Positions 19,704 through 38,932 of a stretch of DNA of 53,346 nucleotides are shown one piece after another. The translations under genes were made by a program, and so were the position numbers. The notes beneath the pieces are model-generated. The model ran no database searches. It was not told where the DNA came from and saw nothing but the letters and a program-made list of their open reading frames with translations. The stretch spans positions 1-53,346 of IMG/VR virus record IMGVR_UViG_3300048065_000224. One strand, written 5' to 3'. The number at the start of each line of letters is the position of its first letter. Position 1 is the first letter of the stretch. This stretch comes from a virus. Its lineage: Duplodnaviria > Caudoviricetes.

Positions 19704-19921
19704 ATATAATTACCTGAACCATTCATAATATCATCACCAGATTTCCTTAAGTAACGAAGAAGAGATGCAACTTGGCTTGTTCCACTATACATGGGCAGAC
19801 CAATGTTCATCTCTTTTTCAAATGTATCAGGATTAAGCGTTTCGTAATTCATTTCGACATTTCCGTCTTTATTTAAAAACACTTCTAATGAAAATAGCTT
19901 TGCTTTAGTTTTTGATTTCAT
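19700..19921 (-). CDS. Hypothetical protein
   Basis: Last ORF of the - strand replication operon, coupled to the upstream gene. Confidence 0.65.
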   Translation of the reverse strand: MKSKTKAKLFSLEVFLNKDGNVEMNYETLNPDTFEKEMNIGLPMYSGTSQVASLLRYLRKSGDDIMNGSGNYI

Positions 19922-22577: not shown

Positions 22578-22921
22578 TGCTTACTACCAAAATCAACTTT
22601 AATTATGTTATCTTTGTATTCTATCTTTTCACCTGTTTCATCAAGTATCTCACCAAACATTCGCCTAGTTGAATAATTGAAAGCAACTTCAGACATACCA
22701 AAATTAAATAACTCTTCAGGCTTACCTGTTATCAAACCAACAAGTCCTTCATGTATAACAGATGCTACAGAATGGTCAAGCTCACTTTCATATTTTTTTC
22801 CAGTTGTATCGTAGGCGTTCATTTTAAATTTATCATCGCCTACATCCTCAAGTATGATATAGTAGTAATTCTTTTGCAGATTCATCTGCTCCATAAATTT
22901 TTTTATTTCTTTATCTTTCAT
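22574..22921 (-). CDS. Hypothetical protein
   Basis: Coupled ORF ending NIIKVDF. Confidence 0.7.
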   Translation of the reverse strand: MKDKEIKKFMEQMNLQKNYYYIILEDVGDDKFKMNAYDTTGKKYESELDHSVASVIHEGLVGLITGKPEELFNFGMSEVAFNYSTRRMFGEILDETGEKIEYKDNIIKVDFGSKH

Positions 22922-23286
22922 TTTTTAAACCACTCCGCAGGTATTGTTTTTTCTGCCCAACGAAAATCGTGCTTGTTGCACCAATCAGCGTAGGTTGTTT
23001 TACTACCTTTGTAAATCTTATTTCGTGCATTCATAAAAACAAATCTTATATCAAGATCTTTATGTTGTTGCTTTACTAGTGCCATCTTTACTCTATCTGC
23101 TTTATCAAGATGACCTTTTGCTTCTACATAGATACCACTCTCGACTATATAGAAATCAGGTGTGTACGTTCGGGGTTTAGGTATGTAGATAAACTTCTTT
23201 GACTCGTACTCAAACTTGACTTTGTTTGCGGCCAAGTTTTTTGCAAGGTGCAATTCAAACTGTGATCTGTACTTGGATCTTCTCAT
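22918..23286 (-). CDS. T7 gp3-like endonuclease I (Holliday junction resolvase)
   Basis: YRSQFE...FEYE...YTPDF...VEAKG...DIRFVF...YADWC; GAGG RBS before ATG 23286. Confidence 0.88.
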   Translation of the reverse strand: MRRSKYRSQFELHLAKNLAANKVKFEYESKKFIYIPKPRTYTPDFYIVESGIYVEAKGHLDKADRVKMALVKQQHKDLDIRFVFMNARNKIYKGSKTTYADWCNKHDFRWAEKTIPAEWFKK

Positions 23287-23669
23287 ATGTTCATCCTCAA
23301 TCCTAATGACTGTATTCGTTTGTTTATGTACCCTGCCAGTTTGGGGGATTGTTTTTCTATGGTAATAAGTTCGTTTGTTAACTGGTATATCGGAAGGCAT
23401 ATTACTTTGTCCTGATTAGTTACATAGTGTATAGCTTGGAATTGGTTTTCTACTTTGAGTATGTCTCGCTTTTCAGTTGCAGAGGTAAGAGAGCCATTGT
23501 TTGAAAAGTTTTCACGAAGAGTCAGGGGAATACCTCTTTCATGTTGACGTAAAAAAACAATGTCTCTCCCACCCCCAGTCTCCGTATGGGAGTCTATATA
23601 AACGTGGTACAAGTCCTCGTTTAATTCCATAAGATTTCTTTGATATTCACGGACATATATAACTGACAT
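23283..23669 (-). CDS. Hypothetical protein
   Basis: Coupled ORF; ATG 23669 overlaps the upstream stop. Confidence 0.65.
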   Translation of the reverse strand: MSVIYVREYQRNLMELNEDLYHVYIDSHTETGGGRDIVFLRQHERGIPLTLRENFSNNGSLTSATEKRDILKVENQFQAIHYVTNQDKVICLPIYQLTNELITIEKQSPKLAGYINKRIQSLGLRMNI

Positions 23670-24559
23670 CACAATGCTTTCTTTTTTAACTTGGAGTACC
23701 ACGCTTGAGGTGGCTGTTTAGCTTTCGATGTTATCCTATCATGCAACACGGCATCTTTCCAACAGTGTGCTTTGAACCCGCACATTGTACAAGGCTTGGG
23801 CAACAGTTTGTTTCCCGTTCTGATCTCTTGTCCATCCTTCTTGTATGTTTCAAATATATCCTTAAACGGTACTTTAAATTCAAGGGAATCATCTGTAAGT
23901 AACTTAATTCTTTTCTCAGCGTCTTTCAGATATTCTTTTCGATCGTCATTCTGCCAATCAGGTGCTTCAACGACAGCTACCTCACCACTTGATTTGTTTA
24001 CAACAATCCACCCACCAAACGGCAACCCCGTTGCTTCTCCGTATAGATGACCTTGCATTATGTAGCCAAACGGATCGTCTTCTTTTATCTTCTCGTATCC
24101 ACCGAAACCTGTGTATTTAAATTTAAATGCCCACTCACTTGCAGACTTTATATCCCAAACCTTTTCTTGTCCTAGTTCATCACGTATTATTAAATCTAAT
24201 GTGCCAGTTATTTTTGTGTCGCCTATATTAACACTGACCTGCTTTTGTTTCTCTACAATATCTACGCCTGCCTGCTCAAGAACAAGTACAGCTATGGACT
24301 CCACAAGATCTCCAAACAGAAATCTAAATAGCATGTTGTATTGTACTTCTTGCTCTACACCCTTTTTCTCAAGAAGTTGTTGGCAGATAGGTCTACCAAG
24401 ACCCGACATTCGGATCTTGTACTCTCGTTGTTTATTTAGCTGAGTATCGACAGAGTCTCTGCACGAATTAGCAAAGTCTGTAATGTCTTCGGGGAGAATA
24501 GACACTTCTCCCCTACTAGCACGTTCCATATAGTCTTGGATTTTAAACAGCAACAGCAT
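23669..24559 (-). CDS. Cas4/RecB-like PD-(D/E)xK exonuclease
   Basis: RMSGLGRPIC...GTLDL...DIKSAS...Q..LY and C-terminal CxxC...C cluster. Confidence 0.8.
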   Translation of the reverse strand: MLLLFKIQDYMERASRGEVSILPEDITDFANSCRDSVDTQLNKQREYKIRMSGLGRPICQQLLEKKGVEQEVQYNMLFRFLFGDLVESIAVLVLEQAGVDIVEKQKQVSVNIGDTKITGTLDLIIRDELGQEKVWDIKSASEWAFKFKYTGFGGYEKIKEDDPFGYIMQGHLYGEATGLPFGGWIVVNKSSGEVAVVEAPDWQNDDRKEYLKDAEKRIKLLTDDSLEFKVPFKDIFETYKKDGQEIRTGNKLLPKPCTMCGFKAHCWKDAVLHDRITSKAKQPPQAWYSKLKKKAL

Positions 24560-25397
24560 TGAAATCGTCTGCTAAACTGTCATCGTTAGTGTCAGGAACT
24601 AACTTGACAGACTCTCTGCTCTGTTCAAGCACGTTTTGATTGTGTGCTTTCACAGTATCTGCAAACTTTTTCATCAAAGCCTTATCTTCTTCAGATATTG
24701 TTGTTTCACTATGTAAGGTAGGTACGGGTATCCAATACTGTACTGAACCTTTCTTTTGCTTAGAAGTTGACATAGATATGTTGCACTTCTGCATAATCTT
24801 TTTTTGCTTGGTTAGGCTATCAATAAAATTTCTGATAGGTACAAACCCTGACTTCTTGAAGTAAGCAACGACTGGATGATTTTCTACTTTGACAGCATCC
24901 CCATTACCTTTCTTGAAATCACCTGATATTACAGAATACAAAACTTGGTTGCAAACTGCAGAACGTGATCTTAACTTCATCGGATCATCGTCTTTAAGTT
25001 TTTCTTCATCTGCCATAGATAAGCGACCACATTTGTTGCCACCCTCTGTATCAGGAAATTCACCTGATAACGAAGGCTTCTGTACAGATTTGCACGAAAA
25101 GCTATTCTGATCAGGATCAAACACACTCCACTCAAATGTTCTTAAGATTGGTCTAATGATAACGGTTTTGGCATATACCATCTCACCTTCGTACATCATC
25201 TTCCAATCGCCACGAGTGAGCGTTTGACCATCTTCTGTCTCAACATCGTAGTTAATGTTTATTCTTGATAAACCTTGCGATACTTTAGGTGCTTTTCCTT
25301 GTCCAGAAAGTTGCATAAAAGCATCTGTGTCGTCACTGTCGAAAGAGCTAACAATGTTATCCATTTCATCAGTCATAGTTTGTAAGTTATTTTCCAT
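24543..25397 (-). CDS. Putative single-stranded DNA-binding protein
   Basis: Lies between polymerase and exonuclease; acidic C-terminus (DDSLADDF). Confidence 0.55.
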   Translation of the reverse strand: MENNLQTMTDEMDNIVSSFDSDDTDAFMQLSGQGKAPKVSQGLSRININYDVETEDGQTLTRGDWKMMYEGEMVYAKTVIIRPILRTFEWSVFDPDQNSFSCKSVQKPSLSGEFPDTEGGNKCGRLSMADEEKLKDDDPMKLRSRSAVCNQVLYSVISGDFKKGNGDAVKVENHPVVAYFKKSGFVPIRNFIDSLTKQKKIMQKCNISMSTSKQKKGSVQYWIPVPTLHSETTISEEDKALMKKFADTVKAHNQNVLEQSRESVKLVPDTNDDSLADDFNAVAV

Positions 25398-25442
25398 AAA
25401 ATTTTCCTTTTTCTGTTTATTTAAGGTTAACGTAATTGGAGG

Positions 25443-26972
25443 TTACAAATTAACTTCAGACAAGTCAAGCCAATTTTTACCTATTTTTAATTCTATGCCG
25501 ACTGGCATATCGTATTTGACGCCATACCTACGTTTTGTCTCACTTGGCAAACACAACATTGCCTTTGATAAAACGTCAATACACTGCTGTTCTTCACTTG
25601 GATGAACGTCAAGAACAATTGAGTCATGTACTGTGTTGCAAATCACAGACTTCATATTCAGTTTTCTCATCTCTTTATCGAGCATAACAAGGGCAATAGG
25701 CAATAGATCAGCCGTAGCAAACCCCTGAACAGGGTAATTACATATAGCAGTACGATTAGTAGCTGAACCCCACTCTGTCCATCTAGCGTCAGGAAAAGAG
25801 TATTCACGCCCTGATGGTAGTTTTATGACCTTTGTTGATACAGCCTGCTTCTCTAGCTCTTTGTGCCACTCAGTTACCTGTTCGTACTTCTCTTTGAACT
25901 TCTGATAGTACTGCTGTTGACTACGAGTACCACTCACACCACCATACAAAGGCTTGAATGTGTGTGCCTTTGCATCCTGTCTAGAGCAGCCTATGATAGA
26001 TGCCGTATAACTATGCACATCTGTACCTTTTATAACATCTGCATAGACATTACTATCTTTGGCAAGAAAGCCTGCCACTCGGAACTCCAACTGTGAATAA
26101 TCGCCCTCAAGTATCTTGCCACCCTGAAATCTACTTTCCACAACCTTACGTATGGCAAACGTTGAACCACGTGGCATGTTTTGAAAGTTGGGATTGCGAC
26201 TGGATAGCCTGCCCGTTGCCGTCACACATTGCATGAACTCAGGATGTATGAAATCGTTTTCATCAACGTTGTTTTTCATTCCCTCGACAAATGTCGATAA
26301 GTAAGTACGAAGAGCATTGTATCGTACATACGCTTCACAAAACTCACGTGCATCACCATCTAGTTCAGATAGCCTATCTTCAAGAGTAACCTTGTCTGTC
26401 TTGAAACCTGCTGATGCAGTATCTTTGGGAGTACGTGGTATGAGCTTGAAGCCTGCCACCTCTCCAGTAGATGTGTAGACTACGCCTTTACCTATGCAAG
26501 TTTTGCATATCCGTTTCGCTTTGCCTACACTTCCATCTTTTCTCAAAGGTGTTATCCTACCTGACCCCCGACAAGTTTCACATTGTCTGCCTATTGTCTT
26601 GTACACAATGTCAGTCATTCGTCTCACACATTGCACAAAGTCTTTGTTCTTCATGCGTGTTCTCATCTTAGGCTTGATTGTGTTGCCACGCATCTCGTGA
26701 CCTAGATTGAATGTGATTGACCAAAGTGATTTGTCTTTTACTTTTCTTGAGTAAAGCAACACACTTTTGTCGTCAGGACTGGCAAGGTTGATAGGTGTAT
26801 CGCCCATTGCATTCTTGGCTAGTCTGTTTAGCTTGTTTTCCAACACGGTCATCTCATCCATGTATTCTTTTTCTATCTCATCAAGAGTTGTCTTGTTAAT
26901 CTTTAGTCCGTTTGATTCTATCCTAGATAGGACATTCGTCATTTCAAATGACAGCTTCAGAGTCTGTTTCAT
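25443..26972 (-). CDS. polA: Family A DNA polymerase, polymerase domain with DnaJ-like zinc-finger insert
   Basis: TATGRLSS, motif A DYSQLEFR, motif B RQDAKAHTFKPLYG, motif C VHDS; two CxxCxGxG motifs at 26484-26582; GAGGA RBS before ATG 26972. Confidence 0.92.
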   Translation of the reverse strand: MKQTLKLSFEMTNVLSRIESNGLKINKTTLDEIEKEYMDEMTVLENKLNRLAKNAMGDTPINLASPDDKSVLLYSRKVKDKSLWSITFNLGHEMRGNTIKPKMRTRMKNKDFVQCVRRMTDIVYKTIGRQCETCRGSGRITPLRKDGSVGKAKRICKTCIGKGVVYTSTGEVAGFKLIPRTPKDTASAGFKTDKVTLEDRLSELDGDAREFCEAYVRYNALRTYLSTFVEGMKNNVDENDFIHPEFMQCVTATGRLSSRNPNFQNMPRGSTFAIRKVVESRFQGGKILEGDYSQLEFRVAGFLAKDSNVYADVIKGTDVHSYTASIIGCSRQDAKAHTFKPLYGGVSGTRSQQQYYQKFKEKYEQVTEWHKELEKQAVSTKVIKLPSGREYSFPDARWTEWGSATNRTAICNYPVQGFATADLLPIALVMLDKEMRKLNMKSVICNTVHDSIVLDVHPSEEQQCIDVLSKAMLCLPSETKRRYGVKYDMPVGIELKIGKNWLDLSEVNL

Positions 26973-27513
26973 ATATTTCCTCAAATGTTAAGCCAAAGGC
27001 TTCTAGTTGTTTTACTGCAACCTCTTCGGTTGCGACTACATCGGCAATGCCGTATTCTTCGACTATCTCTGCAGGTATTTCGTAGAAGGTTTTGCCTTCC
27101 TTAATATACGGTGCAACCAAGTCCTTTTCTTTTTGGGTAACGTTATAACGTTTTGCGAGAGCATCAAGTGCCAAAGACCAACGTCTTCCCTTTGACCTAA
27201 TATATTCTGCAACCATCGTATCATACAAAACTCCATCATATTTAAATCCACATGAACGCAACCACATTATGTCAAACTTTATATTTTGTCCAACAAGAAT
27301 GTCAGCCTTGTCCAAGTCACTTTGTAGATGCTCCTTTGTTCCATCGACGTAAGTTTTTTCTTTGTGATAGAAAAATTCATATTTAACATCTTGGTTTAAC
27401 AACCACTTCCAACCCACTGATACTAAACGATTATTAAAGTAGGGCAACGCTGTAGTACCCCCACCTTGTTTATCTCGATGTGTTGTTTCTACGTCTAAAG
27501 TTAACACGTTCAT
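26944..27513 (-). CDS. 3'-5' proofreading exonuclease domain of PolA, encoded as a separate ORF
   Basis: ExoI LDVET, ExoII GQNIKFD, YDTM, ExoIII YGIADV; start ATG 27513 coupled to the helicase stop. Confidence 0.88.
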   Translation of the reverse strand: MNVLTLDVETTHRDKQGGGTTALPYFNNRLVSVGWKWLLNQDVKYEFFYHKEKTYVDGTKEHLQSDLDKADILVGQNIKFDIMWLRSCGFKYDGVLYDTMVAEYIRSKGRRWSLALDALAKRYNVTQKEKDLVAPYIKEGKTFYEIPAEIVEEYGIADVVATEEVAVKQLEAFGLTFEEIYETDSEAVI

Positions 27514-28739
27514 TAATAATATACCCCCCTTGTGATATCTATTTGGGCATTGATCATACCATGCCATCCGTTGATTTTATTTTTGGATATACAGATGTGT
27601 CTGACTATGTTGTCAATCTCACTTGAACCAGTCTTGCCTATGCCTATGATGATGTCAGCTTCTCCTGCCTTTCCTGTCTTGGAATTGTCAAGCATGGCAT
27701 AGTCAATAAATTGACGGTCATGGGCATCGTAACTTGCTTGGCTTACTGCCCACACAAGACACACATTTCGCTTGGCTATCTCCCTTGCAGATACATAAGT
27801 TTCTTTTAGTCGCTCATCTCCACGATTGTACTCGCCTTTTATTCTGAACTTGTCTAACTGGTCACAGAACATCACGTCAGGCTTGTTTAACTTGGCGTAT
27901 TCATCAACCTCTTCGATTGATGTACCTACTGAATCCATGATTGTTAGGTAAGGTTCTATTTCTTTGACGTATCTATCTAGCAACTCAAACCTTTTATCGA
28001 CCATCTCTTCTTTTGTCAGTTCAAAGTACGACTGAATTATTCTTAACTTGATACGTTTGGCAGGCTCTTCATTTGCCCAGTACACAACCTGAAAACCTTG
28101 TCGTATGTACGATGCAGCCAAAAAGCAACAGAACGTTGTTTTGCCCACTTCAGGTCTTGCAAACAAGATACCTAAGTTACCTCGATCTAAACCTTTTATT
28201 CTTTCGTTTATCAGATTGAATGCGAATGGAAAGTCATTGTCTCCCGCTTCTTCTGACAACAGTTCATTCAAGTCTTTGTCAACGATAGTATAAGTTGTCT
28301 TGTCACCTATTCTTCCGTCGTCTACACTTTCGATAAGTTTCTTGAGTTCTCCAAACTCGTCACTATCTCCAGTAAATATGTCAAGTGCCTTTTCTCCAAT
28401 CTGTCTAGCTTTGTCACGTAACCACAGATTGTTTACAATGTCAGTATGTAGTTCGTCACTTTCTTTTGGTGCAATGAGTTGTGCTATCATATCTTGCACA
28501 CGATTCCTAGATGAATCAGGCATGGCAGGATTACGATCGTTGAATATTGTGGATAACTCTGCTACAGATAGACTACGCTCATACTTTGTGTGTGAGTACA
28601 CTATCGTATCGAATATGTCTTTGAGTTCATTGTCGAACATAGTCCGATCAATTTTATTTTTTACTTTGTTGAAAAAATCGATGTTAAGACAAAAGCCTAA
28701 CACTTGTCTGTCAATCGATATAACGCCTGATGAAGTCAT
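27513..28739 (-). CDS. SF4 (DnaB/T7 gp4-like) replicative helicase
   Basis: Walker A ARPEVGKT, Walker B FCDQLD, VSQA, EADIIIGIG, KNK. Confidence 0.9.
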   Translation of the reverse strand: MTSSGVISIDRQVLGFCLNIDFFNKVKNKIDRTMFDNELKDIFDTIVYSHTKYERSLSVAELSTIFNDRNPAMPDSSRNRVQDMIAQLIAPKESDELHTDIVNNLWLRDKARQIGEKALDIFTGDSDEFGELKKLIESVDDGRIGDKTTYTIVDKDLNELLSEEAGDNDFPFAFNLINERIKGLDRGNLGILFARPEVGKTTFCCFLAASYIRQGFQVVYWANEEPAKRIKLRIIQSYFELTKEEMVDKRFELLDRYVKEIEPYLTIMDSVGTSIEEVDEYAKLNKPDVMFCDQLDKFRIKGEYNRGDERLKETYVSAREIAKRNVCLVWAVSQASYDAHDRQFIDYAMLDNSKTGKAGEADIIIGIGKTGSSEIDNIVRHICISKNKINGWHGMINAQIDITRGVYY

Positions 28740-29502
28740 TTCTTTCCCCTATTTCCATATCTTTTAAATCTTTGTTCAAAACAATTAACTTAGTTGGAAC
28801 GTAGTTCCTTAATTTCCTTACCATCATGTATGCCTTAGAAGTTGCATCTTTGTCAAGTGCAACGTATGCCTTTCTGAATTTTTTTATTACATCAATGTGG
28901 TCATCAAGTAATGTCGTTCCCATCAATGCTAGTCCAGTAGCTACATTGGAAACTGAACAGGCTGAAGGGCAATCTTCCACAACCAAACAGTTGTCACTAT
29001 TACCACACACAAAAGGATATTTACTTGTGCCATATCTTCTCCACTTAGGTTTGCGACCATCAAGGCTTCGACCAGTTCCATCTACCACTTTGTTGTCATG
29101 CTTTACTAGATAGACAACCCTATCTTGTTGCAAGTCATATCTTATGTCAGCCATTCCATCTAGGTAGGCGTTATACGATCCTACTCTTTTTACATAGGCT
29201 TCTGCTTCTTTGCTACGAGATAGTGATACAAATGTGTCAGGAACAACAAAGTCAGCATTGATTGTCTGTTTTGTCACTCGTTCTTTAAATGCAACCTTTG
29301 AGTTTTCTTTTGTAAGTTGCACGCCAGTAGAACCTTTGGTGTGGCAATCTGCATGAAAGCAGTACCACAATCTTTCAAATCCAGTATCCGTTACGCTAAA
29401 GGTATTCTGTCTAGCACATAGAGGGCAATCACCCCTATACCGCCCGTAAGATACAACATGTAAGTTTCCCACATAATTCTTTATCCATTCAGGATTTGTC
29501 AT
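28711..29502 (-). CDS. DNA primase (Zn finger + TOPRIM)
   Basis: CPLC...CFHADC zinc finger; VVED and ALDKDA TOPRIM motifs; GAAAGGAAA RBS before ATG 29502. Confidence 0.88.
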   Translation of the reverse strand: MTNPEWIKNYVGNLHVVSYGRYRGDCPLCARQNTFSVTDTGFERLWYCFHADCHTKGSTGVQLTKENSKVAFKERVTKQTINADFVVPDTFVSLSRSKEAEAYVKRVGSYNAYLDGMADIRYDLQQDRVVYLVKHDNKVVDGTGRSLDGRKPKWRRYGTSKYPFVCGNSDNCLVVEDCPSACSVSNVATGLALMGTTLLDDHIDVIKKFRKAYVALDKDATSKAYMMVRKLRNYVPTKLIVLNKDLKDMEIGERNDFIRRYID

Positions 29503-29524
29503 CACGGTTTCCTTTCGACTAAAA

Positions 29525-29595
29525 CCGTTACTACGCAACAAAAATATTGTCAACATAAAAAATAATTTGACATGATTTTAAATCCGTGATATTTG
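29525..29595. promoter_or_regulatory. Divergent sigma70-type promoters between replication and early modules
   Basis: Back-to-back TTGACA boxes: - strand 29548-53 (17 nt to TAACGG) and + strand 29567-72 (17 nt to TATTTG). Both -10 boxes are weak. Confidence 0.55.
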
Positions 29596-29624
29596 TGTGT
29601 CAACCCGTTGGGAGATATATACCT

Positions 29625-29837
29625 ATGACTAGACCAAATAAGATATTCCAAGATACAACATCGTACAATCTTACGATAGAAAAAAAAGATTACGAAGAGC
29701 TTAAAAAGTTCTCGACAAAAGAATCAAATACATATAACATGCAAGTTAGTATTGCAGATTTGATTCGTACTTCTGTTAAACTTTACTTAGAGGATTTACG
29801 TATTGAGTATGGAAAAGAAAAAACAAACCAAGACTGA
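29625..29837 (+). CDS. Ribbon-helix-helix (CopG/Arc-like) transcription regulator
   Basis: SYNLTI strand, KKDYEELKK helix, SIADLIRTSVKLYL helix; first gene after the divergent promoters. Confidence 0.6.
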   Translation: MTRPNKIFQDTTSYNLTIEKKDYEELKKFSTKESNTYNMQVSIADLIRTSVKLYLEDLRIEYGKEKTNQD

Positions 29838-30084
29838 TATAACACAACGTAGAGACGGTATGTGGATTGTCGATGCGAAGTTGTCAGCAGTAAGAATAGG
29901 CGTACAAGATAAAGAATTTGTCAAGCGTGGACACAACATAGATTACAGAGTTTGGGTAACATGTTTTGTCGCTAAGACACAAAAGGCTTGTATTGATTGG
30001 CTAAGAGACAATATGGCTATGCTAGATAAGCGAAGCCAGAAGTACTCCGTTAATGTCAATCAGTATAAGGAAAGCATCGGCTAA
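29809..30084 (+). CDS. Hypothetical protein
   Basis: GAGGA RBS; followed by hairpin and terminator. Confidence 0.7.
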   Translation: MEKKKQTKTDITQRRDGMWIVDAKLSAVRIGVQDKEFVKRGHNIDYRVWVTCFVAKTQKACIDWLRDNMAMLDKRSQKYSVNVNQYKESIG

Positions 30085-30174
30085 CTTTTCCTTTCATAAG
30101 CTGATGCTTTCGCTATTTCCTCCTATACGTTGAAGAGGGGAGTGACCATAAAAAGTCACTCCTCTTTTTTTTTT
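30070..30174 (+). ncRNA. Candidate anti-Shine-Dalgarno small RNA (3'UTR-derived)
   Basis: 13-bp stem 30070-82/30099-111 with loop AACUUUUCCUUUCAUA, then UUCCUCCU, then an intrinsic terminator. Confidence 0.5.
30133..30174 (+). terminator. Rho-independent terminator
   Basis: AAGAGGGGAGTGAC-loop-GTCACTCCTCTT followed by a long T tract. Confidence 0.9.
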
Positions 30175-30175
30175 G

Positions 30176-30205
30176 TTGACAGATGTTTTTAGTTAGTTGT
30201 ATAAG
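30176..30205 (+). promoter_or_regulatory. Sigma70-type promoter for early operon
   Basis: TTGACA-18 nt-TATAAG; small palindrome GAGTG-N5-CACTC at 30213-27. Confidence 0.7.
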
Positions 30206-30263
30206 TTTCCCTGAGTGATATACACTCTCTATACTAAGAACAGTTAATTGAAAGGAAAATAGT

Positions 30264-31436
30264 ATGAATTGGCTTAATTTATGTAGTGGTGGCGAAACTG
30301 GTAGGCAATCTGTAAAGGAGCTTGGATTACCAGTATCTAATTGGTTTACATCTGAGATAGATAAATTTGCTATGAAAGTAGCAGATGATAATCACGATGA
30401 TCTTGTCCATCTAGGAGATATACGAACTGTAATAGACAAAACAAAAAACATTCCCATAGATGTTATTCTGTGTGGATCACCTTGTCAGGGATTTTCTGTA
30501 GCGGGGAAAGGTTTAAACTTTGAACACCCTCAATCGAAGTTGTTCTTTGAGTTTCTTGAAATATACAAATACCACTATGAGCGTTTCCCTCAATGCAAAT
30601 TGCTTTTTGAGAATGTCCGTATGAAAAAGGAATGGCAAGATATGATCTTTGATATGTTACGTGAAATCAATCCAAAACTTAAATTGTACATAATCAATTC
30701 ATCGCTTGTATCTGCACAGAATAGAGTACGTATGTACATAACTGATTTTGAATTTGATATACCTAAAGATCGAAATATCAAGTTAAGAGATATTGTCGAG
30801 TGTGGTTGTGTAGATAGAGAGAAGTCATACTGTCTAGATGCAAACTATTGGAAAGGTGGTAACCTTAAAATGTACTTTGAGAAGTCACGTAGACAATTAG
30901 TATTCAAAAATCACAATGTAGAGAAAAGTGACACTAATTGTATTCAGGTTGGAGTAGCTGATCTGAATGGACACGATATCTTAAAGCGTGTTTATTCTGT
31001 CGAGGGAAAGTCGCCTACATTAAATACGTGTGGTGGTGGCAATCGAGAACCAAAGATACTTTGTAAATCTGCGTCAATTACTGGGCGTAGACTAGATAGA
31101 AATGGAGTGCGAAAGGATAACGATTTGTCAATTCCAATTACACAAGCTTTAGAAGTATCTGATTCGGACAAGTCACGTTGTCTATCTACAATAACAAAGG
31201 ATACCGTTGTATCGCCTTTGCCAGTTGGTCGCTATCCAAACGCCTATACAGATAGTGCTTTACAATGGAGAAAACTTACTGTAAAGGAATGTTGTAGGTT
31301 ACAAACATTGCCTGATGATTATTGTAAAGCAGTAAGTAACAGTCAGGCTTACAAGATACTTGGCAATGGTTGGACTAACGAAGTCATTAAGTTTATTTTG
31401 AAAGGAAAACAACATGGCAATGATCGAACCAATTAG
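30264..31436 (+). CDS. C5-cytosine DNA methyltransferase
   Basis: GSPCQGFS (IV), ENV (VI), QNRVR (VIII), RLQT, GNGW (X); motif I is atypical (LCSGGETG). Confidence 0.9.
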   Translation: MNWLNLCSGGETGRQSVKELGLPVSNWFTSEIDKFAMKVADDNHDDLVHLGDIRTVIDKTKNIPIDVILCGSPCQGFSVAGKGLNFEHPQSKLFFEFLEIYKYHYERFPQCKLLFENVRMKKEWQDMIFDMLREINPKLKLYIINSSLVSAQNRVRMYITDFEFDIPKDRNIKLRDIVECGCVDREKSYCLDANYWKGGNLKMYFEKSRRQLVFKNHNVEKSDTNCIQVGVADLNGHDILKRVYSVEGKSPTLNTCGGGNREPKILCKSASITGRRLDRNGVRKDNDLSIPITQALEVSDSDKSRCLSTITKDTVVSPLPVGRYPNAYTDSALQWRKLTVKECCRLQTLPDDYCKAVSNSQAYKILGNGWTNEVIKFILKGKQHGNDRTN

Positions 31437-31605
31437 TCTAGATAAGCATCTTGTGGATTGTGTATCTGAATACAAAAAGATACGCCAGTTACAATATGAT
31501 TGTGAATGGAATGGACAAACTGAACAAGCTAGTCTATACAGAACTCAAAGTGTACGCCTAAAGAAGTTAATCAAAGATGGCGTACTTTATCAACCAAAGT
31601 TTTAG
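31414..31605 (+). CDS. Hypothetical early protein
   Basis: GAAAGGAAA RBS. Confidence 0.7.
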   Translation: MAMIEPISLDKHLVDCVSEYKKIRQLQYDCEWNGQTEQASLYRTQSVRLKKLIKDGVLYQPKF

Positions 31606-31619
31606 TGAAAGGGGAAAAC

Positions 31620-32444
31620 ATGACTAAATACTTTTCGGAAAACCACCAACGATGGTTAAATATAGCAAACATGACAGATCAACATGTCAGGAATGCTTTT
31701 GTCAAAATGTGTAACAGAAATAAGGATATAACAACACAAGATGCTTTGTATGCTCAAGAGCAAGAGAAAAGAGCAGATAGGCTACAAGATAGAGTGCTTA
31801 GTTTAGAAAAGACAATACGTAAGCTAAACAGTCAACCTACTGTAACGGCTGAAGCTTACGACGTTGCTTGGAAAAAGATCGAGTCACTTCAAGAGGAAAA
31901 TGTCAGGCTTGTTGCCCAGTTAGAAAACGACGAACACAATGTTGGGCATTTAGATGGGAAGATGAAGAGGTTAGCCTATCTAGAAAAGTTACTTCAAGCC
32001 AAGAACTATGTATTTTCTGATATACCAAACACGCCTGAGAATATGGAGATGATCAAACTACTTAAGAAACATGTTAACAAAGATATGTACAGAGTAAGAT
32101 GGAGAGGTCAATATCTTGTCGAAGGGGAAGATTGGAGAAAGTATGTCGATGGTCAACCTTTGTCAAAGTCTAAATGTATCCGTGTCTATATAGATAATTT
32201 GTCAACACATAACACTGTGGAAGGATTCAATCTAGATGAGATAGGAATCATTCTAGATGGATTAGAAAAGGTCGAAGAACAAGGTGAAGAGTTTATAAGG
32301 AGCTTTGATATTGAGGGTGAAAACGACGAAGATGTCAATGCTGAAAAGTTGTTACTTCAAAAGTCAAAAGTGCTTACAAACTATTTTGAACAGATGAGGT
32401 TTCACATCGAAGAATGTCAACAGAAAATGTCGGAGATAGAATAA
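31620..32444 (+). CDS. Coiled-coil hypothetical early protein
   Basis: GAAAGGGGAAA RBS before ATG 31620. Confidence 0.75.
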   Translation: MTKYFSENHQRWLNIANMTDQHVRNAFVKMCNRNKDITTQDALYAQEQEKRADRLQDRVLSLEKTIRKLNSQPTVTAEAYDVAWKKIESLQEENVRLVAQLENDEHNVGHLDGKMKRLAYLEKLLQAKNYVFSDIPNTPENMEMIKLLKKHVNKDMYRVRWRGQYLVEGEDWRKYVDGQPLSKSKCIRVYIDNLSTHNTVEGFNLDEIGIILDGLEKVEEQGEEFIRSFDIEGENDEDVNAEKLLLQKSKVLTNYFEQMRFHIEECQQKMSEIE

Positions 32445-32638
32445 TGTCACACCCAATGAACGATAACGTATTCGATTTTGTCAACGATAGATGGAGCGAA
32501 ATGAGTGTTGATGATTTCAAAGATTGGCTAAGAACACATAGAGAAACTGATATGGTTGCAAAAGTTGTTCACGATAATCTAGATAGTTTAGAACAGAAAT
32601 GGAAACAAGAAATGTTTGACAGTTATCCATCTATTTGA
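32444..32638 (+). CDS. Hypothetical early protein
   Basis: GGAG RBS; TAATG coupling. Confidence 0.65.
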   Translation: MSHPMNDNVFDFVNDRWSEMSVDDFKDWLRTHRETDMVAKVVHDNLDSLEQKWKQEMFDSYPSI

Positions 32639-32676
32639 TAAGGATATAATCTGAACAGACAAGGAAAGGAAATTAG

Positions 32677-33240
32677 ATGTCTAGCACAGATAGAATACGA
32701 GCTTACTACAACCTACATAAGAAATGCTTTTCTGTACAAGATTACAAAACTGGTAAAGTTGTGGAGCATACAAACAAACTCTATTTAAGTAACGCTTTGT
32801 TTGTTGTCAGGAAGTCAGGCAACGAAAGAGTAAAGAAAGAGGGAAGAAAGAATGTCCACGCTTTTGTCAATGGTATCCGCCATAGTAATTCTGAAGATGC
32901 ACCTTTGGGGTCAAGCTATCAGGTAAGCTACAATCCTCACACAATGGATTACTTTCACTACTGTAGGCATGTTGTTGGCTTTCCTCAATGGCTACCAGTT
33001 GATAGGCATTGGATAGGTAACGTTTGGTTGTACATGTTTGATGGCAAGCCAGTAATTTATGCAGATATCGATAAGTTGTCAGGCGAAAAGTTGTCAGCCG
33101 ATGCTCTTGATGTTGAACCAAGTATGACTATTAAAGGTAAAACTTTTGAAAAGCTTGTGTATCCAAATGGAAATGTAAGCATGAAATTTTTGGAGCAAAA
33201 AAGAAAAATAATCAAAAATAAAAAAGGTGTTGCAATCTAA
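32677..33240 (+). CDS. Conserved phage hypothetical protein
   Basis: YYNLHKKCFSVQ...RKNVHAFV...SYNP motif; GAAAGGAAA RBS. Confidence 0.75.
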   Translation: MSSTDRIRAYYNLHKKCFSVQDYKTGKVVEHTNKLYLSNALFVVRKSGNERVKKEGRKNVHAFVNGIRHSNSEDAPLGSSYQVSYNPHTMDYFHYCRHVVGFPQWLPVDRHWIGNVWLYMFDGKPVIYADIDKLSGEKLSADALDVEPSMTIKGKTFEKLVYPNGNVSMKFLEQKRKIIKNKKGVAI

Positions 33241-33299
33241 TCTAGATAGTTTAGAAAAGAATTAAGTTCAATTTTAATCAATTATGAAAGGAAACAAAA

Positions 33300-34313
33300 A
33301 TGAACTATATAGCTACAAAATTTGAAAACGAAGTAAAAACCCATACTGATTTTAGAGATGTTAGTTTTTATGAAGACAATTCAAAAATACAAAAGGTTGA
33401 TCTTCAGGCTTTAATACCAGTTGGGATAAAAACCAATCATGATTATGCAGAAGTTTTGGAGACTAAAAAACTTGATGGATATTTTGGTTTGTACAATTCT
33501 AGTCTAGATAAGTTATTACGAACTCGACCAGTTAGCGATACTTATCAGCTTGTTGCTCATCATGAATTATTTGCTGAACAAGCTAAAATTTTAGGTCAAT
33601 CTGATTTGCCTTTAGAAAATATAACTGTAACAGATAAGCTTTACAAAGATGGCTTGCAAGCTCATAGAACAATTTACTTTCATGATCTTGAAACGACAGT
33701 AAGCAACAATAAAGATAAGGTTTTATCTAGAATAGATATCTTCAATAGTTGTGATATGTCTTGGTCATTCCAAGTTTTTAGCGGAGCTTATAGAGATCTA
33801 TGTAGAAATACTTTGGTCTTTGGTGGTCAAAAAGCTTATCATCAGCAAGCCAAACATACTAGGAATTTATCGACTACTGCTCTTATGACAAAGGCAAGTA
33901 TTGGTTTGGAGTTTTGGAACAATCAAAAGGAAACCATGCTTAACTGGCGTGCAAAGGATATGTCTTTGGAACAGTTTGGCGAGATACTTAAACAAACTAT
34001 CTGTAAAAAGAAAAGTAAATCTGCGGAGTTAAATTTAACTAATCCAGTTAACGAAACTAAGCTTAATTATCTATTGGATAGATTTGAAAAAGAAACGCCT
34101 GATCTAGGTAAAACTATGTGGGCGGGATACAATGCTTTAACACATTGGGCAACACATACTGATCAAACTATCGAAAAAGAAATAGATAATAAGATCGTAA
34201 AAATAAGATCAGGTAAATCTACTGCTGATACGCCAAGCGTACAAAGAACAAGAAATGACGAAGTAAGAAATGTTATTGAATGTGATGCGTGGAAAAGTAT
34301 GGAGGTTGCATAA
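33300..34313 (+). CDS. DUF932/DUF945-like early protein
   Basis: NSCDMSW...AYRDLCRNTLV...KHT...WAGYNALTHWATH pattern. Confidence 0.7.
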   Translation: MNYIATKFENEVKTHTDFRDVSFYEDNSKIQKVDLQALIPVGIKTNHDYAEVLETKKLDGYFGLYNSSLDKLLRTRPVSDTYQLVAHHELFAEQAKILGQSDLPLENITVTDKLYKDGLQAHRTIYFHDLETTVSNNKDKVLSRIDIFNSCDMSWSFQVFSGAYRDLCRNTLVFGGQKAYHQQAKHTRNLSTTALMTKASIGLEFWNNQKETMLNWRAKDMSLEQFGEILKQTICKKKSKSAELNLTNPVNETKLNYLLDRFEKETPDLGKTMWAGYNALTHWATHTDQTIEKEIDNKIVKIRSGKSTADTPSVQRTRNDEVRNVIECDAWKSMEVA

Positions 34314-34394
34314 TTGACTGATCTAATTGCAACAATTTATAAGGTGGTCATGATTATTTTTTTAATCATGATCATTGGTTTAATCATAGGATAA
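34314..34394 (+). CDS. 26-aa hydrophobic membrane peptide (not in ORF track)
   Basis: GGAGGT RBS, TTG start, LIATIYKVVMIIFLIMIIGLIIG. Confidence 0.5.
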   Translation: MTDLIATIYKVVMIIFLIMIIGLIIG

Positions 34395-34407
34395 GGAAAG
34401 GAAAATC

Positions 34408-34761
34408 ATGAAAACATTATCTGATATAGGCAACACAATTGACGCCTTAAAAGACGTGTCAACAAATGCTTTGTCAAAACATGGATATAGTCGTAGCCGT
34501 TTAAGAATGAAACAATTGTCTGTCAATCTTAGTCAAGCTTGGGATATGTACAAAATTAAACATGGCAATACCTATAGAACTGAACTTTGTCTATTTGTCA
34601 TTAAAAATTCATCAAGCGGATTAAAATTTCCATCAATTAAAAAACGAACTGGTTTTAATCAATCACAAGTTAAAGCTTCTCTTGACTGGTTAATAGATAA
34701 AAATATCATTCAATGTAAAATAAAAGATAAGTTTGCAATTTATAGCTATAAAAAAAAATAA
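34408..34761 (+). CDS. Putative winged-helix DNA-binding protein
   Basis: IKKRTGFNQSQVKASLDWLIDKNII resembles a wHTH; GAAAGGAAA RBS. Confidence 0.5.
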   Translation: MKTLSDIGNTIDALKDVSTNALSKHGYSRSRLRMKQLSVNLSQAWDMYKIKHGNTYRTELCLFVIKNSSSGLKFPSIKKRTGFNQSQVKASLDWLIDKNIIQCKIKDKFAIYSYKKK

Positions 34762-34762
34762 C

Positions 34763-34792
34763 TTGCATTAAATAAAATTATCGAATTATAAT
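34763..34792 (+). promoter_or_regulatory. Sigma70-type early promoter
   Basis: TTGCAT-18 nt-TATAAT followed by hairpin GGCTAGGTT...AATCTAGCC. Confidence 0.65.
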
Positions 34793-34846
34793 TGGGCTAG
34801 GTTAGAAATTAATCTAGCCTTTTTAAATGTGAAAGGAATTCCAACA

Positions 34847-35230
34847 ATGGAAACAAAACAATATTTAATAAAAAGCGAATACGATTTTAATAAAAAGAAA
34901 TTTAACGCAGTTAATAATTGTGAATTAACTTTACAATTTAAAGTAATGGATAGTTGCTGTTTAGTTGAAATTATTGGTCGTTATAATGGTCGCACCAATG
35001 AAGAATTTAAACATCAAATTTTTTGCCATAAAGACCAAATGTTAAAAATCTTACCTAATGTGAATGATCAAGTTGCAAAGGTTGATGAACCAGTTAGCAA
35101 AGATAGGGTTTTAATTGATCAAAATATTGGTGTTATTTTTGAAGAGGAACAAAAGCAAAAGGAATACCAGTTAGGTTTGCACGGTCAAATAGATCTTGAA
35201 GAATTAATTGATGAAAAGAAAGGAAACTAA
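34847..35230 (+). CDS. Hypothetical early protein
   Basis: GAAAGGAA RBS before ATG 34847. Confidence 0.7.
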   Translation: METKQYLIKSEYDFNKKKFNAVNNCELTLQFKVMDSCCLVEIIGRYNGRTNEEFKHQIFCHKDQMLKILPNVNDQVAKVDEPVSKDRVLIDQNIGVIFEEEQKQKEYQLGLHGQIDLEELIDEKKGN

Positions 35231-35231
35231 T

Positions 35232-35354
35232 ATGGCTTACTTTTTAAAAGAACTTTTAGATTTGTTTAAGTGGATTTGTTGTGGCTTTACTCTTGCTTAT
35301 TGCTTGGCTAGTTATCATGGTTTAGATACTAGCTTTTCTAGTTTGTGGGGTTGA
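35232..35354 (+). CDS. 40-aa hydrophobic peptide (not in ORF track)
   Basis: GAAAGGAAA RBS; MAYFLKELLDLFKWICCGFTLAYCLA... Confidence 0.55.
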   Translation: MAYFLKELLDLFKWICCGFTLAYCLASYHGLDTSFSSLWG

Positions 35355-35356
35355 TC

Positions 35357-35524
35357 ATGGCTTACTATTTTGAATGTAAAGATTGCGGAAAGAAAGAAAC
35401 TTTCCCTAAAAGAAAAATGTATGATGAATCAAAGGAAGGTAAAAAACAAGAATATGAAACTGTACTCTGTGTTTCTTGCGTTTCTAATAAGGTTCGTCTA
35501 AAAGGTAATCTAATAATTATTTAA
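35357..35524 (+). CDS. 55-aa CxxC-CxxC zinc-ribbon protein (not in ORF track)
   Basis: CKDC...CVSC; fills the gap between neighbouring genes. Confidence 0.55.
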   Translation: MAYYFECKDCGKKETFPKRKMYDESKEGKKQEYETVLCVSCVSNKVRLKGNLIII

Positions 35525-35542
35525 TGAAAGGAAACTAAAAAG

Positions 35543-35863
35543 ATGACTATTATTTATGAAAACATGCCCAAGCGATCTATGGGATTAACAAACGTTGCAA
35601 AGGTCGAGAACTTCAAAAGCTTTAGGTCTGGCAATCCTATTGCGAACCAGTTCAGGATTACTTTGCAAAATGGAACTGAAGTGTTTCAAAGTTATTCTTC
35701 TGTAATTGCAATAAAGGTTAATGAACAGACTTTTCTTGATCGTACTTGCTGGAACTATTCAAATACAACTTCAAGATACAGAAAAGAATTCTTGAATGAA
35801 GATACCAAAACGACTAAAGAAAAGATTAAAAACGGTGTTTATGTTATGATGGATTTAAACTAA
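35543..35863 (+). CDS. Conserved phage hypothetical early protein
   Basis: NQF...FQSYSSVIA...WNYSNTTSRYR..FL; GAAAGGAAA RBS. Confidence 0.75.
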   Translation: MTIIYENMPKRSMGLTNVAKVENFKSFRSGNPIANQFRITLQNGTEVFQSYSSVIAIKVNEQTFLDRTCWNYSNTTSRYRKEFLNEDTKTTKEKIKNGVYVMMDLN

Positions 35864-35889
35864 TAAAACTTTAAAGAATACCTTTAACG

Positions 35890-35924
35890 AACGCCTTAGA
35901 TTAGTTTCTAGGGCGTTTTTCTTT
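35890..35924 (+). terminator. Rho-independent terminator ending early operon
   Basis: AACGCCTTAGA-loop-TCTAGGGCGTT followed by TTTCTTT. Confidence 0.8.
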
Positions 35925-36253
35925 GCTTAACTCTAATAAATACCTAAACGGTTGTAATTGCTAGGTTTGTTTCTTTGGTATTGTTTTGGTATATGCTCGC
36001 AATCATACTACCAAACGCAGACTTTAAGGTTAAGTTATACAACTTATAAAAATGTCAATGGCAGTTTGTGTGCGTGCATACACGAAAGGTATACATCAAA
36101 GGTTAAACTTTTGGGAGTTTGTAAGTTGTCTATGCTAGCCTTTGGAAATCTGTTACAGGTATAAGGGTTGGCAAGTGCCACCGGGGGGTACTGGGTACTT
36201 GTATGCAATGTCGGCATATTTTTACCCAAAATGGTTACTTGTACAACTTACGG

Positions 36254-36321
36254 TGCAACGCATTACGTACAACCCTATTTGCAACGCATTACGTACAACC
36301 CTATTTGCAACGTATTATGTA
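36254..36321. repeat. 26-bp tandem repeat, about 2.6 copies
   Basis: TGCAACGCATTACGTACAACCCTATT at 36254 and 36280; degenerate partial copy at 36306. Confidence 0.92.
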
Positions 36322-36367
36322 GACGTGGTGGGGGTATACGTTGTATTTCCCCGGAGGATCTACTCCG

Positions 36368-36396
36368 ATTGTATCCATCAGATCCACTTTTGTCAA
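36368..36396 (-). promoter_or_regulatory. Near-consensus leftward promoter into the non-coding repeat region
   Basis: - strand TTGACA-17 nt-TACAAT. Confidence 0.7.
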
Positions 36397-36413
36397 TAAA
36401 ATAATTATTTTTC

Positions 36414-36442
36414 TTGACGTATGCGTGCTAAGTTCCTATTAT
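36414..36442 (+). promoter_or_regulatory. Promoter of packaging operon
   Basis: TTGACG-17 nt-TATTAT. Confidence 0.75.
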
Positions 36443-36552
36443 ATAGGTAACAAAGCATCATTTAAAGCGTATGCAACCAATCATATCACATCTAAACCAG
36501 TGCATTTTGGCTTTATTTGAAATGATCCTTTGTTTTTATCTAAGGAAACTCC

Positions 36553-36774
36553 ATGTTTGAAGCATTTGTACTGATTTGTTTAGTAGGACAGCCTACTATG
36601 AATGCAAATTGTGAAGAACTTATGGATACACGAGGCCCGTACAAGACTCACGACAAGTGTTTATCACGAGTATACGAGATCCAAAGGGAATTACCCTTGT
36701 ACAAACCTCACATGGAAGCAAGAGCATACCGTTGTGACGAATTTACTCCCGAAACAAAGAAGCAAAGAGCGTGA
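36553..36774 (+). CDS. Small Cys-containing protein with hydrophobic N-terminus
   Basis: AAGGA RBS; MFEAFVLICL...C...C...C. Confidence 0.7.
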   Translation: MFEAFVLICLVGQPTMNANCEELMDTRGPYKTHDKCLSRVYEIQRELPLYKPHMEARAYRCDEFTPETKKQRA

Positions 36775-37144
36775 AATAAGCCCTCAACAAGAGGAATTTC
36801 TCGATCATCTCTTTGAAAATGGTGGCAATGTCACCGATGCAGCCCTAAAAGCAGGTTATGCAAAGGGGTCTGTGACATGGCTACGCAATAGTTTAGCAGA
36901 TGAGATCATCCGACGCACCCAAAACGTGCTGTCTATGAACGCATTTAAGGCGGCTACACGCCTTGTAACGACAATTGACAACCCAGTACCCGAAAGAGGT
37001 GACGACCTACGCTTCAGGGCGGCAGAATCGCTGTTAAACAGGGTCGGACTGGGTAAACAAGAAACAACTAACGTAAATGTACAGGCAGTACACGGTATTG
37101 TCCTGTTGCCACCCAAGAAAGACGTAGTCATCGATGGAAATTGA
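36734..37144 (+). CDS. terS: Terminase small subunit
   Basis: QQEEFLDHL..NGGNVTDAALKAGY HTH; upstream of TerL. Start uncertain (GTG 36734 chosen). Confidence 0.8.
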   Translation: MTNLLPKQRSKEREISPQQEEFLDHLFENGGNVTDAALKAGYAKGSVTWLRNSLADEIIRRTQNVLSMNAFKAATRLVTTIDNPVPERGDDLRFRAAESLLNRVGLGKQETTNVNVQAVHGIVLLPPKKDVVIDGN

Positions 37145-37250
37145 GTGGTGGCAAGCACTCTTGGTTACAATGGTATCGATTAACACAACAATCAACCTTA
37201 TTGTGTTCTTTAGAGGTAGGAAAATAATGAAAAGGGAACGTAATGGCTGA
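37134..37250 (+). CDS. 38-aa single-TM peptide (not in ORF track)
   Basis: MEIEWWQALLVTMVSINTTINLIVFFRGRK..., overlapping both neighbours. Confidence 0.5.
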   Translation: MEIEWWQALLVTMVSINTTINLIVFFRGRKIMKRERNG

Positions 37251-38928: not shown

Positions 38929-38932
38929 GTAA

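Follow-up and report, generated by a model that had tools for sequence, protein, structure and literature searches.

The window analyzed here is a complete virus record of 53,346 base pairs (bp) from a marine podophage, whose large terminase is ~50% identical to those of the HMO-2011-type marine podophages of Roseobacter, Pelagibacter and Puniceispirillum; DNA identical to the window is present in seawater metagenomes. Our subject is a 105-nucleotide (nt) element at positions 30070-30174 of the + strand, which ends a small regulator operon of two open reading frames (ORFs) and is followed by the promoter-like site of a longer operon. We call this second operon the putative early operon, a label given because of its position and its host-type promoter. 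The features of the locus are listed below, where RBS stands for ribosome-binding site, SD for Shine-Dalgarno sequence and aa for amino acids.

29567-29595, + strand: putative promoter of the regulator operon, TTGACA-17 nt-TATTTG, inferred and read by eye (TTGAC(A/G)-17-TAT(T/G)TG in relatives)
29625-29837, + strand: ORF1 of the regulator operon, a small conserved protein of 70 aa, 75-94% identity in 12 aligned relatives
29803-30084, + strand: ORF2 of the regulator operon, 91-93 aa, conserved, no assigned function, relatives 74-90% identical
30070-30111, + strand: RNA hairpin, a 13-bp stem closing a 16-nt loop
30083-30098, + strand: the 16-nt loop, AACUUUUCCUUUCAUA (AACTTTTCCTTTCATA)
30112-30131, + strand: single-stranded linker, unpaired in the centroid fold, with the canonical anti-SD-like U/C tract UUUCCUCCU at 30116-30124
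30132-30174, + strand: intrinsic terminator, a 15-bp stem (30132-30169) and a run of 10 T to 30174
30176-30205, + strand: inferred promoter-like site of the early operon, TTGACA-18 nt-TATAAG, right after the terminator and kept in all relatives that reach the site
30264-35863, + strand: putative early operon of small, mostly uncharacterised genes, the first of which encodes a C5 DNA methyltransferase

A preliminary description of this DNA, made from the sequence alone, had the element ending a short operon headed by a ribbon-helix-helix (RHH) regulator. The position at the end of the operon is confirmed, but the RHH label is not: ORF1 has no match in Pfam (E <= 0.01), in PHROG or in the PDB (with the single sequence and with a profile), and its predicted fold is of low confidence (predicted local distance difference test score, pLDDT, 59), with two helices and no confident strand. 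An RHH regulator is still a plausible identity for ORF1. ORF2 likewise has no protein-family match and a predicted fold of low confidence; a protein atlas returned only unnamed viral clusters for it, and a named phage collection gave no DNA match and no protein match to ORF2.

The element folds into a hairpin, an open pyrimidine tract and a terminator

The 13-bp stem with one G-U pair that had been proposed is present, formed by 30070-30082 (GAAAGCATCGGCT) and 30099-30111 (AGCTGATGCTTTC) with its single G-U at 30079-30102, and so are the second anti-SD tract, which reads TTTCCTCCT at 30116-30124, and the strong terminator. The 16-nt loop is unpaired in the minimum free energy and centroid folds alike, and the fold of 30060-30180 (-42.9 kcal/mol, z = -5.7) was equaled by none of 200 shuffles. 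The last codons of ORF2 and its stop codon (30082-30084) build the 5′ arm of the hairpin, with the stop at the top of the arm; since this stop lies upstream of the terminator, one terminator serves both the element and the coding gene before it.

The transcribed strand of the window is strongly depleted in anti-SD-like words rich in pyrimidines. TTCCTTT occurs 2 times in sense against 27 in antisense and CCTTTC 4 times against 26, and each of the heptamers TTCCTCC and TCCTCCT has a single transcribed-strand copy in the whole genome, both copies being inside the element. Searched with a covariance model built from the element, the window gives no second copy: the element itself scores 122 bits and the next match 21 bits. 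Over the whole window Rfam gives no match at the gathering threshold; the best sub-threshold matches, at 13-24 bits against gathering scores of 40-115, fall in the terminator region only.

Two other readings of the structure were tried and rejected. On the minus strand the reverse complements of the loop and linker look like RBSs, but the ORFs behind them run to only 2-13 codons and are not conserved between clades, and the G-U pairs considered below, which place the structure on the + strand, also rule this reading out. An anti-terminator, in which the U/C tract would pair with the purine-rich 5′ arm of the terminator, reaches at most ~6 bp including wobbles, against 15 bp for the terminator stem, and is absent from the folds.

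The hairpin is conserved as an RNA structure on the + strand

Around 60 loci from viral and metagenome contigs were gathered through relatives of ORF2 (74-90% identical). We define clade A as the relatives with the long hairpin, of which 28 distinct sequences entered the covariation analysis. Within helix 1 of this clade, all 336 cells hold standard pairs (100%), 40 of them G-U; eight of the 12 pairs vary and five have changed on both sides, and when the partner columns are slid as a control, pairing falls to 44-64%. The terminator stem covaries in relatives at a further two pairs. Because the G-U pairs would read as A-C on the other strand, the selected structure is that of the + strand RNA, and neither a DNA palindrome nor a minus-strand transcript. 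The element is therefore an RNA structure under selection on the + strand.

The loop is conserved in a different way. Its 10-nt core, TTTTCCTTTC, is invariant in all 28 distinct clade A sequences, and the stem and the loop flanks vary. As this core lies 3′ of the stop codon, its invariance cannot be explained by coding; and because the last codons of ORF2 change together with the stem, the constraint on the RNA exceeds that on the protein over that stretch. Covariation of the stem around a conserved loop, which the preliminary description had named as a check in related genomes, is thus found. The ORF1-ORF2 transcript has a structured non-coding 3′ end at 30070-30174, and this element is a well-supported new conserved phage RNA motif.

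The U/C tract is retained in clades A, B and C. Clade B keeps ORF2, the promoter and the operon, and has a 6-bp hairpin in place of the long one; a search of viral contigs with the clade C pattern gave no match. In two clade D loci (L064:10700-10900 and L070) the early-operon promoter stands directly 3′ of the ORF2 stop, and as this clade has no terminator, transcription of its regulator operon would continue into the early operon.

The loop is complementary to a ribosome-binding site shared by the early operon

The core of the loop, UUUUCCUUUC, and the early-gene RBS, GAAAGGAAAA, are exact complements of each other. Matches to the loop complement of 9-12 nt had been reported just upstream of ten starts, and all ten are there: 11, 11, 9, 12, 10, 9, 9 and 11 nt before the starts at 30264, 31414, 32677, 33300, 34408, 34847, 35232 and 35543, respectively, and 9 nt before those at 29502 and 25397 on the - strand. 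The start at 31620, given as an imperfect match, has only 7 nt. The label of single-stranded DNA-binding protein (SSB) that had been attached to the ORF at 24543-25397 finds no support, as this ORF has no PHROG or Pfam match.

The exact 9-mer GAAAGGAAA has 9 matches over both strands of the 53 kb, against 0.95 expected, a count that none of 100 shuffles reached. All nine copies fall within 29508-35534 and none elsewhere in the window. Seven serve as RBSs within the early operon and an eighth as that of the primase gene, which leaves one copy, the complement of the loop. As an RBS the motif stands at a fixed 2-8 nt from the start codon and contains a usable SD. The copies, together with one shorter form, are:

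30250-30258, + strand: GAAAGGAAA RBS of the C5 DNA methyltransferase gene (start 30264)
31400-31408, + strand: GAAAGGAAA RBS of the start at 31414
32664-32672, + strand: GAAAGGAAA RBS of the start at 32677
33286-33294, + strand: GAAAGGAAA RBS of the start at 33300, with the longest loop match (12 nt)
34396-34404, + strand: GAAAGGAAA RBS of the start at 34408
34831-34837, + strand: GAAAGGA(AT) RBS of the start at 34847, loop match 9 nt
35218-35226, + strand: GAAAGGAAA RBS of the start at 35232
35526-35534, + strand: GAAAGGAAA RBS of the start at 35543
29508-29516, - strand: GAAAGGAAA RBS of the primase gene (start 29502)

The distribution among gene classes is uneven. GAAAGGA stands upstream of 8 of the 11 early-operon genes, 1 of the 13 replication genes, neither of the 2 regulator genes and none of the 42 late genes, so the motif is not equally common before late genes, and none of the 42 has a loop-complement match of >=8 nt (at least 8 nt). 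Late genes were said to use mostly GGAG/GAGG-type RBSs, and this preference holds up: such a site precedes 22 of the 42 late genes and 1 of the 11 early-operon genes. The contrast was drawn with hand-chosen starts for 68 genes, starts near an SD being preferred, a choice that could inflate SD counts generally but cannot produce a contrast between the classes.

Predicted pairing energies point the same way for the loop. Against the early-operon start regions its mean energy is -11.37 kcal/mol, compared with -5.63 +/- 1.07 kcal/mol for composition-matched shuffles, none of 300 being as good, and the difference between its early and late energies exceeds that of all 300 shuffles. The linker behaves differently, pairing best with the late GGAG-type RBSs (single values down to -17 kcal/mol; 5 of 300 shuffles as good). 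Cofolding the 105-nt RNA with start regions in RNAcofold was uninformative for the loop, as the program cannot place a loop-to-linear pairing and used the linker instead.

Loop and motif occur together across lineages

Three complete or near-complete clade A genomes, of 51, 45 and 56 kb, repeat the arrangement seen in the window, with the forward copies lying in the 4-6 kb downstream of the loop. All seven copies of GAAAGGAAA in the 51-kb relative are the loop and six forward copies (<=6 kb downstream), and all six in the 45-kb relative are the loop and five forward copies; the 56-kb relative has the loop, four forward copies and one further copy inside the primase coding sequence. The motif is found downstream in 26 of 27 de-duplicated clade A loci (68 copies in 74.3 kb). 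By comparison, GAAAGGA is absent from the 10.6 kb of four clade B loci and from the 3.9 kb of clade D, and at the orthologous RBS 3′ of the methyltransferase gene clade A has GAAAGGAAAA, and clades B and D have GAAAGGGGAAAA.

Where the element is single-stranded, its exact cognate matches to an RBS reach 13-15 nt in the window and in three relatives (L047, L059 and L054), a length attained by <=1 of 200 shuffles. L054 belongs to clade C, and there a different tract, AUUUUUUCCUCUCUU, perfectly complements an equally unusual methyltransferase RBS. When cognate and non-cognate pairings are compared, a preference for the own clade is seen for the clade A loop only, and for neither the clade B nor the clade C tracts; the length of the U-run in the loop follows that of the A-run in the RBS as a weak trend.

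The early operon varies in content around these sites. The first gene after the conserved promoter and leader (region 30206-30263) is a methyltransferase gene in some relatives, a gene for a 77-aa MAKKxEWEIERDK protein in others, and other genes elsewhere, and the gene junctions lie at or beside the RBS motif, which suggests that cassettes are shuffled there. The primase start also differs among relatives: in the window (29473-29520) and in L018, L021 and L044 it has been remodelled by an inserted GAAAGGAAA RBS and about five extra N-terminal codons, and in the remaining relatives of clades A and B the protein begins with a conserved MEW/MNW, the SD before it being slight or absent.

The loop also occurs outside this group of phages. 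L079, a 68-kb record (estimated 40% complete) of an unrelated, larger phage, has a non-coding stretch at L079:6790-7080 on the minus strand of the locus, 3′ of genes for tRNA-Met, tRNA-Leu and tRNA-Ser and a tmRNA-like gene; there the identical 16-nt loop AACTTTTCCTTTCATA sits in an imperfect hairpin that has no ORF upstream and is followed by a different terminator and then by a TTGACA-17-TATAAT promoter. About 70 nt upstream, an A-U stem is predicted to hold a 10-nt loop resembling the 3′ end of 16S ribosomal RNA (rRNA). The tract is ambiguous, since its opposite strand reads as a perfect RBS with a 6-codon ORF behind it. Its use as a search query was uninformative, the other matches being reverse complements of ordinary minus-strand gene starts. 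The same loop near tRNA genes in an unrelated phage hints at a mobile RNA class that mimics the 16S rRNA 3′ end.

A base-pairing riboregulator is the favored explanation

We suggest that the element is most likely a base-pairing anti-RBS riboregulator, a reading to which we assign a probability of about 0.5. On this model the hairpin would display the single-stranded loop core UUUUCCUUUC, which would pair over 9-12 nt with GAAAGGAAA(A) RBSs. Its partners would be the sites in the neighboring early operon, to which this phage adds those of the primase gene and of the ORF starting at 25397. Such pairing would mask the SD region and reduce binding of the 30S subunit. The U-rich tract, the terminator hairpin and the tail of 8-10 U would make a stable 3′ end; together they resemble the module by which base-pairing small RNAs (sRNAs) are stabilised and Hfq-type chaperones recruited. 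The active species would be either the 3′ end of an mRNA of ~600 nt or a processed fragment of ~105 nt.

The RNA structure, the conservation of the loop, the complementarity, the distribution of the motif and its co-occurrence with the loop across lineages are observed; a stable RNA, its pairing in the cell, repression as opposed to activation, and a role in timing are what we infer. The preliminary description went further, proposing that one phage RNA shuts off a whole gene class by recognising a class-specific RBS and so acts as a temporal switch, and its interpretation is partly supported. Recognition of a class-specific RBS agrees with the loop match and with the restriction of the motif in four genomes, and does not extend to the second tract, which is a generic anti-SD sequence; the temporal switch is conjectural. 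As to co-evolution of loop and RBS, their presence and absence run in parallel across clades A, B and D, with L055 and L079 as exceptions, and their flanks do not covary. A broader proposal, which we hold more tentatively, is that this family of abundant marine phages tags its early genes with a private RBS 'address', GAAAGGAAA, and that the loop RNA reads this address to give a class-wide up or down switch in a phage transcribed by the host RNA polymerase. No RNA polymerase was found among the 30 ORFs scanned against PHROGs, several large ORFs being without any match.

A number of observations weigh against a class-specific riboregulator. Since the second tract prefers the late GGAG-type RBSs, the RNA as a whole is not class-specific, and the anti-SD sequences of the linker and of the clade B tract are generic, pairing as strongly with the RBSs of clade D, which has no element, as with those of their own clade. 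GAAAGGA is, moreover, expected to be a good SD for a 16S rRNA with a U-rich 3′ tail, and any rRNA-like pyrimidine tract would fit it. The element is also unevenly kept: clades B and C retain only the U/C tract, and clade D lacks hairpin, U/C tract and terminator altogether, which makes the element dispensable. Loop and motif can be found apart, as in L055 of clade C, which has a GAAAGGAAAGGAAAA RBS and no loop hairpin, and in the unrelated L079, which has the identical 16-nt loop and only one other GAAAGGAAA. In the other clade A genomes the motif precedes only ~2-4 of the 5-8 early-operon genes in the first 3 kb, and the primase copy is confined to the subgroup that includes the window. Most loci have a longest cognate match of 10-12 nt, a length reached by 5-30% of shuffles and so not individually significant, and the flanks of loop and RBS show no covariation. 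Lastly, the co-occurrence rests on few independent lineages and may reflect some one or two evolutionary events, so that shared descent could account for it.

The form of the RNA raises a further difficulty, for neither inspection by eye nor a consensus scan found a conserved internal promoter in the 3′ part of ORF2, and a discrete small RNA would therefore need processing. Contigs of four metatranscriptome libraries cover 29770-30122 and 30084-30174; run X19 has a 91-nt contig identical to 30084-30174, and contigs of runs X20 and X21 end at 30122 and 30120, these being assembly units that do not mark transcript ends. The contigs show presence of the sequence only, as they carry no strand, ends or abundance and RNA libraries can contain DNA, and stretches that they leave uncovered are equally uninformative.

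Alternative explanations

Among the alternatives, the one that survives best is a general SD sponge that mimics the 3′ end of 16S rRNA, in which CCUUUC in the loop and CCUCC in the linker would bind host or phage SDs broadly, for instance weakening translation or steering it elsewhere; on this view the early RBS would be matched as a side effect, loop and RBS both fitting the host ribosome. The linker's success with late GGAG-type RBSs, where it beats most shuffles, is what such a sponge would give, as are the clade B tract that pairs equally with clade B and clade D RBSs and the uniqueness of both anti-SD heptamers on the transcribed strand, and in the unrelated phage the identical loop lies 3′ of tRNA genes with no GAAAGGAAA class nearby. 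What a sponge leaves unexplained is that four genomes keep the exact 9-mer within a single operon and that lineages without the loop are also without that RBS; the matches, too, run past the SD into the A-rich spacer and the 5′ flank, up to 12-15 nt. We regard this explanation as unlikely.

The element might instead act in cis, as a 3′ untranslated region (3′UTR) of the regulator mRNA that stabilises the transcript or folds back on the SDs of ORF1 and ORF2 for autoregulation, as the icaR 3′UTR of Staphylococcus aureus folds back on the SD of its own mRNA. The ORF1-ORF2 transcript ends in the element in every case, the element taking in the ORF2 stop, and the commonest clade A tract, UUUUCUCCUU, can pair over 6-7 bp, as read by eye, with the conserved ORF1 SD GGGAGA(A). 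The tract in the window, however, fits that SD less well than the tract of its relatives does, and the energies do not single out these two genes: the linker pairs with the start regions of ORF1 and ORF2 at -11.0 and -8.8 kcal/mol, no better than an all-gene average of -7 to -10 kcal/mol, and the loop pairs poorly with them (-6.3 and -5.9 kcal/mol). A pure stability role, furthermore, requires no invariant loop, and L079 has the same hairpin with no upstream ORF. A cis-acting role is, in our judgement, decidedly unlikely.

We consider it quite improbable that the element is a protein-binding RNA, with ORF2, S1 or an Hfq-like protein as its partner, or an accessory to termination, the complementarity to the RBSs being incidental. 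Proteins commonly bind single strands rich in pyrimidines, ORF2, which has no assigned function, invariably lies next to the element, and the base pairing proposed above is predicted only. Against this, an invariant 10-nt loop would by chance have to complement the most over-represented 9-mer of the genome (9 copies against 0.95 expected), and the sole non-RBS copy of GAAAGGAAA is the loop itself; the low-confidence fold of ORF2 offers nothing in favor of RNA binding, and a strong terminator requires no helper.

That GAAAGGAAA is a DNA-level site (a stoperator-like protein site or a cassette recombination linker) and the inverted repeat an operator is highly improbable: the motif does lie at the borders of mosaic gene cassettes, with a variable first gene after the promoter and a primase start remodelled by an inserted copy in the window's subgroup, and ORF1 and ORF2 may putatively bind DNA, but helix 1 holds G-U as its only departure from Watson-Crick pairing (40 cells, no other mismatch), which shows selection on the + strand RNA and not on a DNA palindrome, the motif keeps a fixed 2-8 nt from starts with a usable SD, and a DNA site gives no reason for a reverse copy in the loop of a covarying RNA hairpin.

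Relation to known systems

Bacterial base-pairing sRNAs with loop-exposed anti-SD seeds include RNAIII and the Rsa RNAs of S. aureus, with their C-rich loops, RoxS of B. subtilis and the enterobacterial CyaR. The element shares with them a pyrimidine-rich seed in a hairpin loop, complementary to the SD regions of several mRNAs, and an intrinsic terminator with a long U tail; it differs in being phage-encoded, in lying at the end of an mRNA and not in a gene of its own, and in having as predicted targets one shared 9-mer RBS in the phage's own operon. A second comparison is with sRNAs derived from 3′UTRs, such as CpxQ, DapZ and SroC. Like these, the element shares the terminator of the upstream gene and has its seed just after the stop codon; unlike them, the 5′ arm of its hairpin lies inside the coding sequence, and the putative sRNA would owe its own 5′ end to processing or to an internal promoter.

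Most known temporal control in phages operates on transcription, through RNA polymerases, sigma factors, anti-terminators and repressors, or through proteins that repress translation. The RegA protein of T4 shuts off a set of early phage mRNAs post-transcriptionally at their RBSs, the same role as is proposed for the element, with a protein as effector in the one case and an RNA in the other. Among phage systems the nearest in spirit is the c4 RNA, which acts on a single target (icd/ant) in an immunity circuit of temperate phages, pairing at the ribosome-binding region. The element is like c4, which is treated in the cited passages as a phage-encoded antisense RNA of P1/P7 (PMC8201110), in being a phage RNA that is proposed to control the translation of phage genes by pairing at an RBS and that is made from the target's regulatory region. 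It is unlike c4 in its 8-10 dispersed predicted targets sharing one RBS, and no sequence or Rfam similarity between the two was found.

A striking analogue of the motif is the start-associated sequence (SAS) of Cluster K mycobacteriophages, described in the passages cited as an asymmetric 13-bp sequence, GGGATAGGAGCCC, that includes the SD core and stands 3-7 bp before starts (PMC3203893). The same passages have it restricted to non-structural genes, with a single opposite-orientation copy in several genomes, and in 2011 the Cluster K authors left open whether its binding partner is RNA or protein (PMC3203893). As far as these passages go, GAAAGGAAA resembles the SAS in being short, start-associated, SD-containing and class-restricted and in having a single reverse copy. 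It differs in sequence, not fitting the consensus GGGATAGGAGCCC, and in the phylum of the host, and the main-text passages report no complementary hairpin for the SAS (PMC3203893); we therefore regard GAAAGGAAA as an analogue and not a member.

A literature search of limited coverage found no paper on this element or on a phage anti-SD sRNA regulon. Given that no curated RNA family matches, the motif is new, and its way of working is probably a known one. If the proposal is true, an entire operon class would be under the control of one phage RNA through the RBS that its genes share, and uncultured, widespread marine podophages would possess a compact switch that acts after transcription; class-specific start-associated motifs in phages would also gain a concrete explanation. 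A laboratory host would suffice to test the hypothesis, so that the natural host need not be cultured.

Other features of the genome

The remaining modules and sites of the window are:

1-19703 and 36600-53346, + strand: structural and lysis genes
19905-29556, - strand: replication module, with ribonucleotide reductase, resolvase, Cas4-like exonuclease, split family-A polymerase, DnaB-like helicase and primase
29603-29575, - strand: divergent promoter-like site facing the primase operon, overlapping the + strand site of the regulator operon

The face-to-face promoter-like sites at 29567-29603, one for the regulator operon (+) and one for the primase/replication operon (-), are kept overlapping in relatives, and this stretch is likely to be an operator region for ORF1 or ORF2. 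Downstream of the early operon, between its terminator (35889-35918) and the packaging genes, some 740 bp (35863-36600) hold no convincing ORF, have a higher G+C content (0.425) and contain several sigma-70-like matches on both strands; this region could house a late promoter, an origin or the genome ends. A 658-aa ORF at 38933-40909, which lies between the genes for terminase and portal, weakly matches the tyrosine integrase family phrog_1 over residues 151-342 (E = 4.9e-6). The family-A DNA polymerase is split into two overlapping - strand ORFs, with the exonuclease part at 26944-27567 and the polymerase part at 25443-26984.

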